A stretch of DNA of 64,000 bases, taken from contig JBAZXC010000001.1 of the NCBI GenBank assembly GCA_041660065.1, positions 72,535 to 136,534 of the forward strand, read 5' to 3'. The notes under the pieces are model-generated. The model ran no database searches. It had not been told where the DNA came from and was given only the letters and a program-made list of their open reading frames with translations. The DNA is from Parcubacteria group bacterium (GTDB taxonomy: Bacteria; Patescibacteriota; Minisyncoccia; Moranbacterales; GCA-2747515). Position 1 is the stretch's first letter, and each line of letters starts with the position of its first letter. Both the position numbers and the translations under genes were made by a program. This document shows, one piece after another, positions 18,226 to 59,974 of this stretch.

Positions 18226-18345
18226 TTTATAAAGTTGAAAGTCTGTGAAGTCCATAAAGTAGAAAGTCCATAAAGTCAAAAGTCCGTAAAGGTAAAAGTT
18301 TGTAAAGTAGAAAGTCCATAAAGTCCGTAAAGTTATAAAGTTTTT
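18226..18345. repeat. degenerate 16-17-bp tandem repeat array (AAGTCCRTAAAGTNRA-like, ~7 units)
   Basis: Repeated AAAGTCCATAAAGT / AAAGTCCGTAAAG / AAAGTTTGTAAAGT units visible by eye; non-coding. Confidence 0.6.
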
Positions 18346-18410
18346 TCGCAATAGGTAAATAGGTCTTGCTTTACGCGTGGTGAAGTTGTTCGATAGACTG
18401 AAAAATTCTT

Positions 18411-18435
18411 GTCATTCCCGTGAAAACGGGAATCC
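18411..18435. repeat. REP-like palindromic element copy 1 (GTCATTCCCG-N6-CGGGAATCC)
   Basis: GTCATTCCCGTGAAAACGGGAATCC; same family as the copies at 55.9, 56.3 and 59.8 kb. Confidence 0.6.
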
Positions 18436-18448
18436 AAAACCATTCTAT

Positions 18449-53590: not shown

Positions 53591-53920
53591 ATGAATTTCA
53601 GTGAATATCAAAGTGAATCACGCAAAACAGCGCTGTATCCTGATGTGGGGAAGAATTTCGTCTATCCGACGCTTGGGTTGGCGGGTGAGGCGGGGGAAGT
53701 GGCGGACAAGCTCAAAAAGACGATCCGTGATGATGGCGGTGTTTTGACAGCAGAAAAAAAACAGGAAGTAGGCAAGGAATTGGGCGATGTGCTTTGGTAC
53801 GTGGCACAGGTTGCGTCGGAGCTTGGACTGTCGCTTGATGAAGTCGCACAGGCAAATTTGGAGAAATTATTTAGTCGTAAAGAGCGCGGGACATTGACCG
53901 GGAGCGGAGACAATCGATAG
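53591..53920 (+). CDS. MazG-like nucleotide pyrophosphohydrolase
   Basis: AGEAGEVAD ... ELGDVLWY motifs. Confidence 0.7.
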   Translation: MNFSEYQSESRKTALYPDVGKNFVYPTLGLAGEAGEVADKLKKTIRDDGGVLTAEKKQEVGKELGDVLWYVAQVASELGLSLDEVAQANLEKLFSRKERGTLTGSGDNR

Positions 53921-53966
53921 AAAGAAGAGGTATATGTCATTGGAAATAGGATAAGAAATACGATGT

Positions 53967-54365
53967 ATGTCAGAAGATTATCACAAAAGCATTTATAGTT
54001 ATACGGATTTGGATGTTTATAAGAGAGCATATAAATTGTCTATTATTGTATGTACAAAGTTGATCATCAAGTTGCCAAAAGAAGAGCAATTCGTTCTTGT
54101 GGATCAGTTGCGAAGATCGTTCAAAGCAATACCGCGTTTGATTGCAGAGGGATTTGGTAAAAAACATCAGAAAAAAGGTTTTCAAAAATATTTAGATGAT
54201 GCAATTGCTGAAAATAATGAAACGATTGTGAGCCTTTCACATGTACGAGATATTTACCATAAGTGTGTAAATAAATCATCAATAGAAAAAATGATCAGTG
54301 AATATGAGATTGTGGGCAAACAACTGTTTAGATTAAAACAAAGTTGGAACAAATTTTCTCAATGA
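53967..54365 (+). CDS. four-helix-bundle protein (23S rRNA intervening-sequence protein family)
   Basis: DLDVYKRAYKL ... LPKEEQFVLVDQLRRSFKAIPRLIAEGFGKKH matches the family signature. Confidence 0.7.
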   Translation: MSEDYHKSIYSYTDLDVYKRAYKLSIIVCTKLIIKLPKEEQFVLVDQLRRSFKAIPRLIAEGFGKKHQKKGFQKYLDDAIAENNETIVSLSHVRDIYHKCVNKSSIEKMISEYEIVGKQLFRLKQSWNKFSQ

Positions 54366-54422: not shown

Positions 54423-55898
54423 ATGTCAAAAAAGTATAACGTGACAATCGGTATGGAGATCCATGTGGAGCTCAAGACAGAGTCAAAGATGTTTTCCGGT
54501 GCGCCAAATCATTTGGGTATGGAGAAGACGCCAAACATGTCGATCGATCCCGTGACGATGGCGCTGCCGGGCAGTTTGCCGGTGCCAAACAGGAAGGCGA
54601 TCGAATTTGTCCAAAAAGCGGGACTCGCATTGGACTGTGAGATCGCGCGCAAAAGCAAATTTGATCGCAAAAATTATTTTTATCCCGATCTGCCAAAGGG
54701 GTATCAGATCTCGCAATACGATATGCCTCTGTGTGAGCATGGCAAGGTGATGATCGGCGATAAAGAGGTTGGCATTACGCGTATCCACATGGAAGAGGAC
54801 ACAGGGAAATCCACGCATCCGGCCGGTGCGTCATATTCCCTTGTGGATCTCAATCGTGCGGGTGTGCCTCTTATGGAACTCGTGACCGAGCCGGATATCA
54901 CCAGCGGAGCGCAGGCGAGAATGTTTTGTCAGAAGTTACAGCAGATCTTTCGCTATATCGATATCGCCGATGCGGATATGGAAAAAGGACAGATGCGCTG
55001 TGAGGTGAACATTTCTCTTTATAAAGAAGGTGCCGATCGTCTTAGTGGACAGAAGGTGGAGGTAAAAAATCTCAGTTCATTTCGTGTTGTAGAAAGAGCG
55101 ATCGATTATGAGATCGAACGGCAAGCCAAGGCGTTGGATGGTGGCGAAGTGATCGTGCAAGAGACGCGCGGATGGGATGATGCAAAAGGTAAGACTGTAT
55201 CACAACGCAAAAAAGAAAATGCGCATGATTATCGCTATTTCCCGGAGCCGGATATTCCGCCGATGACATTTACCGACGAGTACGTGGAGCAATTGCGTCG
55301 TACTTTGCCGGAGTTGCCGCGACAAAAGGAAGAGCGTTTTATCAAAGAATACGGTCTGAGTGTGCAAAACTGCTCTGTAATCACGGCGGATATCGCGATG
55401 GCAAATTACTTTGAGCATGTTGTCAGTGAGATCATGGAAAAAAAGGCGTCCGGTGAAATGCGATCCGAACCCGAAAAGGCCATAAAACTTGCCGCAAACT
55501 ATTTGGTCAGCGAAGTGCAAAAACATCTCGTCAAAGAAGGACAGAGCATTGATGATATAAAAATTTCCGCGGAGAATTTTGCCGAACTCATGGCAATCGT
55601 TGCAGATGGCACGATCAATTCGTCGGCGGCACAGATCGTTTTGGAAGAAATGTTTTATGGTAAGGACGATGACCCAAGTCATATTATCGAAGCAAAAAAT
55701 CTCTCACAGGTGTCAGACACGGGTGCATTGGAACAGCATGTCGATGACGTTCTTGCGCAGAATGCACAGTCTGTGGAGGATTACAAAGCCGGCAAAGAAA
55801 ATGCGATCAAGTACCTTATGGGACAAGTAATGAAAGTTTCCGGCGGAAAAGCCAATCCACAAATGGTGATGGAGATCTTGAAAGAAAAGTTGAAATAA
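54423..55898 (+). CDS. gatB: Asp/Glu-tRNA amidotransferase subunit B
   Basis: GatB N-terminal (IGMEIHVEL) and C-terminal GatB/YqeY domain. Confidence 0.9.
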   Translation: MSKKYNVTIGMEIHVELKTESKMFSGAPNHLGMEKTPNMSIDPVTMALPGSLPVPNRKAIEFVQKAGLALDCEIARKSKFDRKNYFYPDLPKGYQISQYDMPLCEHGKVMIGDKEVGITRIHMEEDTGKSTHPAGASYSLVDLNRAGVPLMELVTEPDITSGAQARMFCQKLQQIFRYIDIADADMEKGQMRCEVNISLYKEGADRLSGQKVEVKNLSSFRVVERAIDYEIERQAKALDGGEVIVQETRGWDDAKGKTVSQRKKENAHDYRYFPEPDIPPMTFTDEYVEQLRRTLPELPRQKEERFIKEYGLSVQNCSVITADIAMANYFEHVVSEIMEKKASGEMRSEPEKAIKLAANYLVSEVQKHLVKEGQSIDDIKISAENFAELMAIVADGTINSSAAQIVLEEMFYGKDDDPSHIIEAKNLSQVSDTGALEQHVDDVLAQNAQSVEDYKAGKENAIKYLMGQVMKVSGGKANPQMVMEILKEKLK

Positions 55899-55972
55899 TC
55901 ACTGTTGCGGTGTAATGCTCGTTGTCATTCCCGCGCAGCCTGCCTGCCGGTAGGCAGGGCGGGAATCCAGAT
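55875..55972. repeat. direct repeat left copy (last 8 gatB codons + spacer + nested REP)
   Basis: ~85% identical to 56306..56415, which encodes ILKEKLR* in place of gatB ILKEKLK*. Confidence 0.65.
55921..55972. repeat. REP-like palindromic element copy 2 with nested inner palindrome
   Basis: GTTGTCATTCCCGCGCAG-CCTGCCTGCCGGTAGGCAGG-GCGGGAATCCAGAT. Confidence 0.6.
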
Positions 55973-55978
55973 TTGTCT

Positions 55979-56263
55979 ATGAAAAACTATTTTGTTTATA
56001 TATTGGCAAGCAAAAGAAATGGCACTCTTTATATTGGTATAACGAGCAATTTGCAAAGACGCATATATGAGCATAAAACAAAACAGATTAAAGGATTCAC
56101 AGAAAGATATGGCGTAGATCATCTTGTATATTTTGAGCAGACGACGGATGTGTACAGTGCTCTAACAAGGGAAAAACAATTAAAAAAGTATAACAGACTA
56201 TGGAAATTGCGATTGATTGAAGAACAGAATCCGCAGTGGCAGGATCTTTCAGAAGATTTGTAA
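55979..56263 (+). CDS. GIY-YIG nuclease family protein (UPF0213/YhbQ-like, ~94 aa)
   Basis: YFVYILASKRNGTLYIGITSNLQRRIYEHK = GIY-YIG core with Arg and Glu. Start set at MKNYF; the ORF-track start 55922 lies inside the repeat. Confidence 0.7.
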   Translation: MKNYFVYILASKRNGTLYIGITSNLQRRIYEHKTKQIKGFTERYGVDHLVYFEQTTDVYSALTREKQLKKYNRLWKLRLIEEQNPQWQDLSEDL

Positions 56264-56266
56264 TAT

Positions 56267-56297
56267 TCTAGATTCCCGCCTTCGCGGGAATGACAAC
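56267..56297. repeat. REP-like palindromic element copy 3 (inverted relative to copy 2)
   Basis: TCTAGATTCCCGCCTTCGCGGGAATGACAAC; its reverse complement matches the ends of copy 2 (GTTGTCATTCCCG...CGGGAATCYAGA). Confidence 0.6.
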
Positions 56298-56305
56298 ATA
56301 TAATA

Positions 56306-56415
56306 ATCTTGAAAGAAAAGTTGAGATAATTATGTTGTGATATTGGGAATGGGCATTGTCATTCCTGTGCAACCTGCCTGCCGGTAGGCAGGGTAGGCAG
56401 GGCAGGAATCCAGAT
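56306..56415. repeat. direct repeat right copy (gatB-tail-like fragment + nested REP copy 4)
   Basis: ATCTTGAAAGAAAAGTTGAGATAA ... ATTGTCATTCCTGTGCAACCTGCCTGCCGGTAGGCAGGGTAGGCAGGGCAGGAATCCAGAT. Confidence 0.6.
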
Positions 56416-56418
56416 CTA

Positions 56419-56994
56419 TTAGATCAACACATTGATGTGGAAGAAATAGTAGATCGTGCCAATCACTTCATGGATGAAAAATTGGGGCTCTTTGAAGTAG
56501 CGACCGTGATAGTAGTTTGCACGGTGGAGAGAAAAATCTGTAATGCCATGTTGTCTCGCAAGGACGGCGATGCGTCCGAGATGAAAGTCATTGGAAACAA
56601 AGACAAAACTTTTATTTTTGGGGAGATTTTTGATCGTGGCGTGCGTGTTGAGTCCGTTGTAATCCTCGATGATGTCTTCGGTGGCAACGTTGTTTTTTTG
56701 CGCCAAGTCTAGCATGACGTCTACTTCGTGTGCGCCATACGTACTGGGACCGCCGGAAAGAACAAGGCAGGACACAGTATTATTCTTATATAATCCAATG
56801 CCGGTCATTGTGCGGTCATAGAGTGCATGTGATGGGATGGCATCACGCCACACGGCAGCACCAAACACCACAGCGCAATCTTTTGGCTCTGTGGATGCAT
56901 GGAAATAATTTGCAATTGTGTAAAATGCGCTTGCAAAGATGACTGTAAATATTATAGCAATCAGCGCAATGCAGATCTTGATGAATTTTTTCAT
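56419..56994 (-). CDS. DUF218/YdcF (SanA/ElyC-like) membrane-anchored protein
   Basis: N-terminal TM anchor; DUF218 motifs (VVFGAAVW ... LVLSGG). Confidence 0.65.
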   Translation of the reverse strand: MKKFIKICIALIAIIFTVIFASAFYTIANYFHASTEPKDCAVVFGAAVWRDAIPSHALYDRTMTGIGLYKNNTVSCLVLSGGPSTYGAHEVDVMLDLAQKNNVATEDIIEDYNGLNTHATIKNLPKNKSFVFVSNDFHLGRIAVLARQHGITDFSLHRANYYHGRYFKEPQFFIHEVIGTIYYFFHINVLI

Positions 56995-59723: not shown

Positions 59724-59800
59724 ATGTTTTTTAATTAGTCCTGTCGCTCACGAGCGACGGGATGATTGGTTAATAATTAATAATGAATTTATTGATTTAA

Positions 59801-59828
59801 TGTCATTCCCGTGCAGACGGGAATCTAG
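59801..59828. repeat. REP-like palindromic element copy 5
   Basis: TGTCATTCCCGTGCAGACGGGAATCTAG. Confidence 0.6.
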
Positions 59829-59846
59829 TCAATAAAATATGTTGTG

Positions 59847-59876
59847 CTGGATTCCCGCCTATGCGGGAATGACAGC
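59847..59876. repeat. REP-like palindromic element copy 6 (inverted; 18 bp from copy 5)
   Basis: CTGGATTCCCGCCTATGCGGGAATGACAGC. Confidence 0.6.
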
Positions 59877-59954
59877 TATGAGATATTTTTGCAGTGCTGC
59901 CTTGATCTTGCCGAGAGGTATTCGTTTTTGTTGAGGAGAGATCCACCCGAGGCG

Positions 59955-59974
59955 CCTGCCTGCCGGTAGGCAGG
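59955..59974. repeat. stand-alone copy of inner palindrome CCTGCCTGCCGGTAGGCAGG
   Basis: Identical 20-mer to the inserts in REP copies 2 and 4. Confidence 0.5.

Follow-up and report, generated by a model that had tools for sequence, protein, structure and literature searches.

The Ssn family pairs a GIY-YIG endonuclease specific for single-stranded DNA (ssDNA) with hairpin repeats known as SRM or NTS (Chenal et al., Nat Commun 2025; PMC11893778). Here we analyzed 64,000 nucleotides (nt) of a metagenome-assembled genome (MAG) of the Parcubacteria group, hereafter the window, and studied a single ssnA locus between gatB and a DUF218 gene. We consider it likely that this locus is an SRM-ssnA-SRM module of the Ssn family that was inserted into a Parcubacteria-group genome, and that the ~100-nt duplication of host sequence around it is a secondary, lineage-specific footprint. 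New relative to the published description are sites that are empty or alternatively filled in relatives, homology between copies that is limited to the unit, and recurrent duplications of the flanks.

The SsnA of N. meningitidis has 94 amino acids (aa) and belongs to cd10448, a CDD family (GIY-YIG_unchar_3). It binds the 28-nt NTS CGTCATTCCCGCGMAVGCGGGAATCYRG in ssDNA only, in one orientation only, and cuts a few nt upstream (5') of the motif, with no action on double-stranded DNA (dsDNA) or RNA. Binding and cutting were demonstrated for four homologues, from three Neisseria species and Wolbachia. In Neisseria, SsnA lowers transformation by NTS-containing DNA and restricts the recombination of incoming ssDNA that carries the motif. 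An SRM lies near the gene in 71% of homologues and on both sides of it in 42%. The NTS-ssnA-NTS layout was likened to insertion sequences and to REP/RAYT pairs (REP, repetitive extragenic palindromic), with mobility left as a hypothesis and no evidence of movement (all from PMC11893778). The 2025 description thus left open both the biology of Ssn proteins beyond Neisseria and the mobility, past or present, of NTS-ssnA-NTS, and its text nowhere mentions duplications, direct repeats, target sites or Patescibacteria. Our literature search found no later paper on ssnA mobility, and a search for work joining GIY-YIG with repetitive extragenic palindromic sequences or with COG2827 returned nothing relevant. 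An earlier note on this DNA, made from the letters of the sequence, had likened the arrangement to a small nuclease-driven mobile or homing unit. It is not an unrecognized kind of element. The family had already been published, and the comparison with REP/RAYT that the note drew is also made in the Discussion of that paper.

An ssnA module between gatB and a DUF218 gene

The host genes gatB (+) and DUF218 (-) converge on a 520-nt spacer, and the features in and around this spacer are the following.

54423-55898, + strand: gatB, Asp/Glu-tRNA amidotransferase subunit B (NCBIfam GatB equivalog NF004012, E = 4e-186; list of open reading frames, ORFs)
55875-55972, strand not applicable: duplication copy A, comprising the gatB tail and stop codon, a 22-24-nt spacer and the left SRM (MAFFT, repeat search)
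55923-55970, + strand: left SRM/NTS hairpin, TGTCATTCCCGCGCAG and GCGGGAATCCAG around an insert (ssDNA fold -16.3 kcal/mol, z = -3.8)
55939-55958, strand not applicable: nested palindrome CCTGCCTGCCGGTAGGCAGG, inserted in the left SRM's loop (found at three loci of the window versus 0 expected)
55979-56263, + strand: ssnA homologue, a 94-codon single-domain GIY-YIG nuclease gene (ORF list, PF01541, family alignment)
56268-56295, - strand: right SRM/NTS hairpin TGTCATTCCCGCGAAGGCGGGAATCTAG (27/28 match to the Neisseria NTS consensus, 8-bp ssDNA hairpin)
56306-56415, strand not applicable: duplication copy B, comprising a pseudo-copy of the gatB tail (ILKEKLR*), a spacer and a second nested SRM (MAFFT, repeat search)
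56357-56413, + strand: SRM inside copy B, stem ATTCCTG/CAGGAAT (sequence comparison, ssDNA fold)
56419-56994, - strand: DUF218/YdcF-family gene, the downstream host gene, convergent with gatB (Pfam PF02698, E = 1.9e-16)

Read from the left, the gatB stop codon is followed by 24 nt, the left hairpin, 8 nt and the nuclease ORF. The ORF is followed by 4 nt, the inverted hairpin, 10 nt, copy B, 3 nt and the DUF218 stop codon. The arrangement described in the earlier note, a GIY-YIG gene between inverted REP copies, was thus recovered with every element in place. The left hairpin consists of TGTCATTCCCGCGCAG, the insert CCTGCCTGCCGGTAGGCAGG and GCGGGAATCCAG, and the right hairpin is the same repeat on the opposite strand without the CCTGCCTGCCGGTAGGCAGG insert. 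Their inverted-repeat arms pair 55921-55938 with 56280-56297 (18 nt, 94% complementary) and 55958-55971 with 56267-56280 (14 nt, 93% complementary). Exact-sequence look-ups of the window GatB and SsnA returned no record, and protein searches found 100% identical NCBI entries for the window SsnA and DUF218 proteins.

The GIY-YIG domain (PF01541) covers residues 3-74 of the 94-aa protein (E = 2.7e-16), and the only other Pfam match is a weak one to T5orf172. Pfam reports these two domains alone, with no HUH/Y1 (IS200/IS605 TnpA-like) transposase in the unit. In an alignment of 31 family members, residues Y7, Y18, R28, H32 and E65 never vary, and N72 is almost invariant (at least 90%). Y7, Y18 and E65 have the same spacing as Y6, Y17 and E64, the residues mutated in N. 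meningitidis SsnA. A PDB search returned no Ssn structure, its sole match being the distant UPF0213 protein BH0048 (E = 0.002). Homologues start at the methionine of MKNY, and the apparent TTG starts at 55922 and 56356 come from reading through the palindromes, as the earlier note had held. Peptides derived from the palindrome are attached to the N-terminus of many database homologues (SFPRRRES, VIPAKAGIQ, CHSRGSGNP), and C-terminal ones (WIPDQVGND, WMPDRVGHD) also occur.

The repeats agree with the family as well. Without its 20-nt loop insert, the left SRM is one position off the Neisseria NTS consensus and then fits the published SRM pattern. That pattern, HGTCWYN(0-2)YYVSBRHN(0-5)WNVSBRGN(0-2)RNCYNB, has 4 matches in the window (0.12 expected), the right SRM among them. 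The stem motif ATTCCCG-N(3-30)-CGGGAAT occurs five times in the window and in none of 100 shuffles. With the degenerate copy B included, the 64 kb hold six SRM copies at four loci, all of them with the flanks TGTCAT...AATC that give the motif its orientation (GTC 5', C immediately 3'). All true SRM copies in the window lie between long ORFs. All fold as ssDNA, either as an 8-bp stem with a 4-nt loop or as a stem with a nested second hairpin (z = -2.7 to -5.8).

On the features compared, the window gene and its repeats belong to the Ssn family. They share with it the 94-aa single-domain GIY-YIG protein with Tyr/Tyr/Glu at the positions mutated in PMC11893778, the inverted SRMs on both sides of the gene within 500 bp, and further intergenic SRM copies nearby. 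They differ from the described members in the host, a Parcubacteria genome of the Candidate Phyla Radiation (CPR), in the second palindrome inserted in the loop of the left SRM, and in the ~100-nt duplication of host sequence that flanks the unit. Given the identical length, the catalytic residues and the 27/28 NTS match, the window SsnA is predicted to have the same activity as its characterized homologues.

Homology between ssnA loci ends at the flanking repeats

A homology search with the window protein returned at least 7,900 homologues (about 8,000). The best 120 are 65-86% identical to it and are named as Parcubacteria, Moranbacteria, Margulisbacteria, Deltaproteobacteria, Ignavibacteriales, Zixibacteria and Omnitrophica. 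When one genome per GTDB species was scanned, at least 559 relatives were confirmed among at least 600 candidates. The best 80 of these loci (given L numbers here), at 56-71% identity, represent about twenty groups at the phylum level. Betaproteobacterial homologues (Nitrosomonadales L022; Burkholderiales L017, L054 and L070; Ottowia L066) are 60-71% identical to the window protein.

We profiled the layout of these best 80 loci with a simple hairpin detector, and 75 had both flanks usable. An SRM on the plus strand upstream of the gene together with one on the minus strand downstream was found in 59 of the 75, one of the two in 14 and neither in 2. At least one SRM is therefore present in 73 of the 75 loci, which span many phyla. 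The median gaps are 24 nt from the SRM to the start codon and 9 nt from the stop codon to the SRM. In the printed flanks of the 80 loci, nearly all carry GTCATTCCCGCGnnnGCGGGAATCCAG just upstream and its reverse complement just downstream. Some lineages have stem variants of their own (ATCCCCG, ACCCCCG, ATTCCGG and ATTGCCC). Nuclease and palindrome thus form a true pair, as the earlier note had supposed, and the linkage sought outside the window was found almost everywhere in the SsnA family.

Homology between units of different genomes starts ~35-60 nt before the start codon and ends ~30-50 nt past the stop codon. This span (about -50 to about +320 from the start codon) corresponds to the distance from the outer end of one SRM to the outer end of the other. 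Two MAGs carry two ssnA copies each (L007/L055 and L018/L048), and the copies L007 and L055, which are 81% identical, likewise share homology limited to the unit. We also looked at an identical SsnA protein, P0080, listed on 55 contigs, as a test of one SsnA in differing neighborhoods. All 18 contigs read share the same neighbors, so this case is no evidence either way.

Just outside some units, the outer half-site (..GGGAATGACA.. or TGTCATTCCCGC..) is repeated 2-7 times in "stutter" arrays. These arrays lie downstream of ssnA in L013, L014, L023, L041, L063 and L067 and upstream of it in L001, L003, L041 and L079. Three or more half-sites of the same orientation on one side occur in 9 of the 80 loci, and outward half-sites outnumber opposite ones by ~4 to 1 over the 80. 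The arrays may have been left by repeated rounds of cutting and repair at the cleavage site.

Viral relatives of SsnA are rare in phages, with 25 found among 2.9 million contigs (L174-L198, IMG/VR). Several of them keep SRM-like hairpins with strongly diverged stems, for example GTCACCCCGGGCTTGACCCGGGGTCC and GTCGGCCCGGGCTTGACCCGGGCC, and across the viral relatives the hairpins vary together with the SsnA protein. On one contig that encodes P0080 (L162:1-2845), the ssnA unit and several SRMs stand between an ORF with DUF4131/Competence domains (the ComEC N-terminus) and a separate Lactamase_B ORF, and the unit may lie inside or beside a split comEC. This setting is of note because SsnA affects natural transformation in Neisseria.

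The gatB/DUF218 site is polymorphic in relatives

Close relatives of the locus were found with the GatB C-terminus and with the DUF218 protein. A single metagenome scan using GatB, in which the nearest relative had 66% protein identity, yielded a more distant set with just the deep arrangement of gatB facing miaA and no close empty site. In the distant set, ssnA was absent from all 80 gatB loci (45-66% protein identity) within the fetched flanks of up to 2.5 kb downstream of gatB, and gatB directly faces miaA in ~40 of them. In the close relatives, which have 76-82% nt identity to the window over the last 324 nt of gatB, gatB faces DUF218-miaA and the spacer varies as follows.

L163: 40 nt, terminator hairpin only (empty)
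L173: 63 nt, terminator only (empty)
L169-L172: 127 nt, unrelated hairpins
L081: 615 nt, SRM(-), SRM(+), ssnA (86% aa identity to the window) and SRM(-)
L168: 661 nt, a gene for DUF559 (a Vsr-like endonuclease) with a copy of a different composite palindrome on either side

Empty gatB sites, which had been sought in relatives, are therefore present in L163 and L173. The site is polymorphic for presence, absence and type of cassette over short and moderate distances, given that filled, empty and DUF559-filled spacers all occur. L081 and L168 originate from one groundwater sample; their gatB ends are 95% identical and their DUF218 ends 90%, with nothing shared in between. At the gatB end, the window resembles the empty L163 slightly more (82%) than the filled L081 (79%). 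The state of this site in relatives, together with homology that is limited to the unit, points to the ssnA module at gatB/DUF218 being an insertion.

The DUF559 gene of L168 encodes 116 aa (L168:3038-3700; ENA ERZ909603 k127_89207) and lies between two direct copies of the composite palindrome CACCCTCATCCGCCC...GGGAGAAGGGGTAA...CCCTCTCCCTCTGGGAGAG...GGTGAGGGTG. Related sequence occurs at L166:1572-1683 and L167:1668-1691. This cassette looks like a second pairing of a small nuclease with its own palindrome, allelic to the ssnA module. A second presence/absence difference adjoins the ssnA site on the other side of gatB. In the window (region 53591-54365), a gene for a 23S-rRNA-intervening-sequence protein (PF05635, 53967-54365) separates MazG from gatB. 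MazG and gatB are 55 nt apart in L169, without anything in the interval, and L168 has MazG as the gene called next to gatB, at a distance of 122 nt.

A direct duplication brackets the gene and the right-hand SRM

Copy A of the duplication takes in the last 24 nt of gatB, and copy B reads ATC TTG AAA GAA AAG TTG AGA TAA. The two copies bracket the ssnA gene and the right-hand SRM, with copy B starting 10 nt beyond the outer end of that SRM. Aligned with MAFFT as two padded regions, they have a mean column identity of 83%, and copy B has extra blocks of 4 nt and 9 nt. The gap-free segments measure 25 nt (the gatB tail), 46 nt and 24 nt, with 96%, 87% and 96% identity. The stem of the copy B SRM carries a compensated C-G to T-A change relative to copy A, which fits either continued selection on the hairpin or an origin from a different allele, and its nested palindrome holds a 9-nt internal repeat. 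An assembly artefact was rejected as the source of the repeat because the copies differ by substitutions and indels.

We compared 250-400 nt of left and right flank by local alignment for 77 units, with all SRM-like sequence masked, against a null of 462 mismatched flank pairs whose maximum score was 32. Four loci are clearly above this null, and a further one is borderline.

Window (Parcubacteria): ~100 nt unmasked, flank score 48
L006 (Gammaproteobacteria): 203 nt, about 98% identical, flank score 386
L028 (Saccharibacteria): 49 nt, flank score 78
L035 (Kapaibacterium): 46 nt, flank score 77
L024 (Deltaproteobacteria): ~25 nt, flank score 34, borderline

The duplication of gatB tail and palindrome reported in the earlier note, including its ILKEKLR* reading, is thus real, and its length is one of several (46, 49, ~100 and 203 nt). 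In L006, L028 and L035, 5-7 nt separate the end of the left copy from the left SRM (counted to TGTCAT or a variant), and 4-13 nt lie between the right SRM and the start of the right copy. All three duplicated segments include a stop codon in frame. Read without ORF calls, this would be the stop codon of the upstream gene, as with gatB. We treat the flank duplications as a lead and not as a result because their frequency is low and the null was drawn from mismatched flanks and not from matched ordinary genes.

The earlier note had listed the flanking duplication among the features of a small mobile or homing unit. L081 has ssnA without the duplication, its intergenic DNA can no longer be aligned with that of the window, and copies A and B are still 83% alike, so the duplication is younger than the split between L081 and the window. 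It is thus probably not the scar of the first arrival of ssnA, unless ssnA entered the two lineages separately. A candidate for a degraded gatB-tail copy to the right of the L081 unit was rejected, as 240 of 2000 shuffles reached its local alignment score.

Relation to other repeat-associated nucleases

The ssnA unit is a functional analogue of REP/RAYT (REPtron) systems and not a member of them. As in those systems, a nuclease gene lies between inverted copies of a dispersed hairpin repeat, and the protein recognizes the hairpin as ssDNA (by homology in the case of the window). Gene-less convergent repeat pairs, known from REP/RAYT as bacterial interspersed mosaic elements, have a counterpart in the window at 59801-59874. 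RAYT, however, is an HUH/Y1 transposase with a covalent DNA intermediate, whereas the window protein is a GIY-YIG enzyme and predicted to be hydrolytic. The IS200/IS605 elements also have subterminal hairpins that are recognized in ssDNA, with cleavage a short distance from the hairpin. They differ in that both of their ends are cut on the same strand by a TnpA (Y1) transposase without target duplication, whereas the SRMs of the ssnA unit are inverted, with one cleavable site per strand, and long duplications are sometimes present.

The homing endonucleases of the I-TevI type and the endonuclease of Penelope-like elements have the same catalytic fold. Unlike the window protein, which has no intron or retroelement context, they carry extra DNA-binding or reverse-transcriptase modules and act on dsDNA. 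Penelope-like elements make target duplications of variable length. Among repeats, the Neisseria dRS3/NIME family has a core identical to that of the SRM (ATTCCC-N8-GGGAAT) but its definition included no associated protein. Around half of all dRS3 copies have now been reinterpreted as NTS (PMC11893778).

Possible origin of the module and its footprint

The positions of cleavage around the window module can be predicted from its geometry. The flanking SRMs are inverted, so the predicted cuts lie just outside the module, one per strand. The left SRM would be cut 5' of the motif, on the gatB side, and the right SRM 5' of the motif, on the DUF218 side. Given that the right SRM is on the minus strand and that the published cut is 5' of the motif, a cut of the bottom strand is expected between the right SRM and copy B.

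We interpret the duplication as the probable product of illegitimate joining at the module's right end, and two routes could lead to it. One would be a staggered-cut insertion that duplicates its target. In the other, an ssDNA fragment from a related donor, trimmed by SsnA, would integrate on one side only, anchored by homology. The ssDNA copy would be taken up by transformation or exposed at a replication fork, and trimming would place the module at its 5' end, with host DNA 3' of it. The fragment would then integrate through this single homologous arm, bringing the module into an empty allele and leaving a duplication whose length would be set by the joining point of the non-homologous end. 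The T-unit-T arrangement, in which a duplicated segment stands on either side of the unit, fits a long, variable target duplication and a one-ended illegitimate integration beside a homologous anchor equally. A host-level limit on the recombination of SRM-marked DNA, as in Neisseria, is compatible with such trimming and integration and may keep the gene intact.

Several points weigh against the reading of the locus as an inserted module with an insertion-related footprint. To our knowledge, SsnA is a hydrolytic nuclease with no strand-transfer activity. The 64-kb window contains one ssnA copy only, and the presence of ssnA at the same site in L081 may mean long residence, which would fit a domesticated host function and mobility equally. 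Flank duplications other than SRM sequence rise above the null in just 4 of 77 loci (~5%). Moreover, in the window, unlike in L006, L028 and L035, the left SRM is part of the duplicated block, contrary to what is expected of a simple target-site duplication for a complete unit with two SRMs. The module could have been inserted next to a solo SRM that was already there, or the two copies could stem from a donor and a recipient.

More boldly, SRM-ssnA-SRM modules could be active mobile elements of a kind outside every transposon classification, spreading by means of a bare ssDNA nuclease and host recombination beside the 3' ends and terminators of genes. We put this forward tentatively. The gatB-tail duplication would then be an insertion footprint, one of a class of 46-203 nt that often includes a stop codon, presumably that of the upstream gene, and the gatB/DUF218 spacer would be a hot spot at which ssnA cassettes compete with DUF559 cassettes of nuclease plus palindrome. 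Of the nuclease-driven mobile or homing unit proposed in the earlier note, the inserted, movable cassette is favored by the empty sites and the linkage of gene and repeat. Homing through dsDNA is unsupported, and self-mobilization by the nuclease is a hypothesis.

Classical homing, in which the nuclease would cut an empty dsDNA allele and spread by double-strand-break repair, seems to us very improbable. The GIY-YIG domain and the presence/absence polymorphism at the gatB/DUF218 site would suit it, as would the sole NCBIfam match of the protein, to the group I intron endonuclease model TIGR01453 (E = 6e-5). That match, however, is weak, reaching 23.1 bits where the cut-off is 56. With its 94 aa, the protein consists of the catalytic domain alone, without an extra DNA-binding module, an intron or an intein, the characterized Ssn members act on ssDNA and cut no dsDNA, and the unit occupies many unrelated sites and not one cognate homing site. 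Exchange of cassettes by ordinary homologous recombination through the conserved flanking genes is a quite possible account, if not a probable one. The gatB/DUF218 spacer would be a hot spot at which strains swap ssnA with its SRMs, DUF559 with its own palindromes, or no cassette at all. No element-encoded transposition would be involved, and the duplication would come from one illegitimate crossover. Patescibacteria are naturally transformable, and the pair L081/L168, with closely similar flanks and unrelated inserts in one sample, speaks for such exchange. The 17% difference between the copies and the compensated stem change would likewise fit origins from a donor allele and a recipient allele. 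Exchange through the flanks nevertheless leaves unexplained how units came to occupy hundreds of unrelated contexts across many phyla, with homology that stops at the SRMs, and it still needs some illegitimate insertion step.

It is also conceivable, though we doubt it, that SsnA is a domesticated host nuclease that controls ssDNA recombination or transformation. The SRMs would be its genomic targets, and the ~100-nt repeat would be an ordinary duplication by slippage or unequal crossover between nearby hairpins, unrelated to mobility. Hairpin repeats do promote local rearrangement. The role demonstrated in Neisseria, a modulation of transformation, is at the level of the host, and the orthologous site in L081, the single copy in the window and the constant neighbors of P0080 in 18 of 18 contigs agree with domestication. 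Against it stand the empty or otherwise occupied sites in relatives and the confinement of homology to the unit, both across phyla and within one MAG. The SsnA proteins of different phyla are 57-71% identical, and duplications of the T-unit-T kind are found again in unrelated genomes, in every case next to the outer SRM ends. On balance, the insertion of an Ssn module, followed by a later duplication at its right end, remains our preferred reading.

The window locus extends the Ssn family to CPR bacteria. These bacteria rely on DNA uptake, so a nuclease that restricts ssDNA is likely to matter to them. The gatB/DUF218 site offers a concrete case of filled, empty and alternative alleles of one intergenic site in closely related uncultured Parcubacteria, and such comparative data make the open question of Ssn module mobility testable. 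Similar footprints occur in three unrelated phyla, and the duplication in the window starts beside the predicted cleavage site. If the footprints are insertion scars, they would show how a nuclease without a transposase can spread together with its own recognition hairpins. This would explain large expansions of repeats, such as those of dRS3/NTS in pathogenic Neisseria and of the Wolbachia and Rickettsia repeats. If they are mere local rearrangements, the window holds an ordinary additional locus of the Ssn family.

Further repeats in the window

Beyond the ssnA locus, the repeats of the window are the following.

59801-59828 (+ strand) and 59847-59874 (- strand): gene-less convergent SRM pair with 18 nt between (palindrome and SRM-pattern scans)
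18410-18437, + strand: solo SRM-like hairpin TGTCATTCCCGTGAAAACGGGAATCCAA, whose 3' tail fails the published SRM pattern
59955-59974, strand not applicable: solo nested palindrome CCTGCCTGCCGGTAGGCAGG outside any SRM (repeat scan)

We considered the gene-less pair as a deletion derivative of an ssnA unit. This was unsupported, as the 18 nt between its SRMs are unlike the inner ends of the unit.

The nested palindrome of 20 nt is a small repeat in its own right. CCTGCCTGCCGGTAGGCAGG and its variants occur in the window at 55939-55958, 56373-56392 and 59955-59974, at L081:863-882, and in the L166 and L168 spacers. They are found within SRM loops, alone, and within the unrelated palindrome associated with DUF559. 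The hairpin that hosts the repeat is the left SRM in the window and the right SRM in L081. CCTGCCTGCCGGTAGGCAGG thus behaves like an independent mini-element that lodges in hairpin loops.

A structured RNA gene at the palindromes was rejected, since Rfam gave sub-threshold matches alone (FtrB, WsnRNA46 and microRNA models), all of them on palindromes. The matches to the Francisella small RNA (sRNA) FtrB and the Wolbachia sRNA WsnRNA46 (best E = 0.009) fall exactly on SRMs, at 56253-56310 and 59779-59903. These sRNA families may be transcripts of SRM-type repeats. Finally, degenerate tandem units of ~11 nt (aaagtccataaag / aaagtccgtaaag ...) fill an intergenic stretch at 18230-18345, just upstream of the solo SRM-like hairpin.

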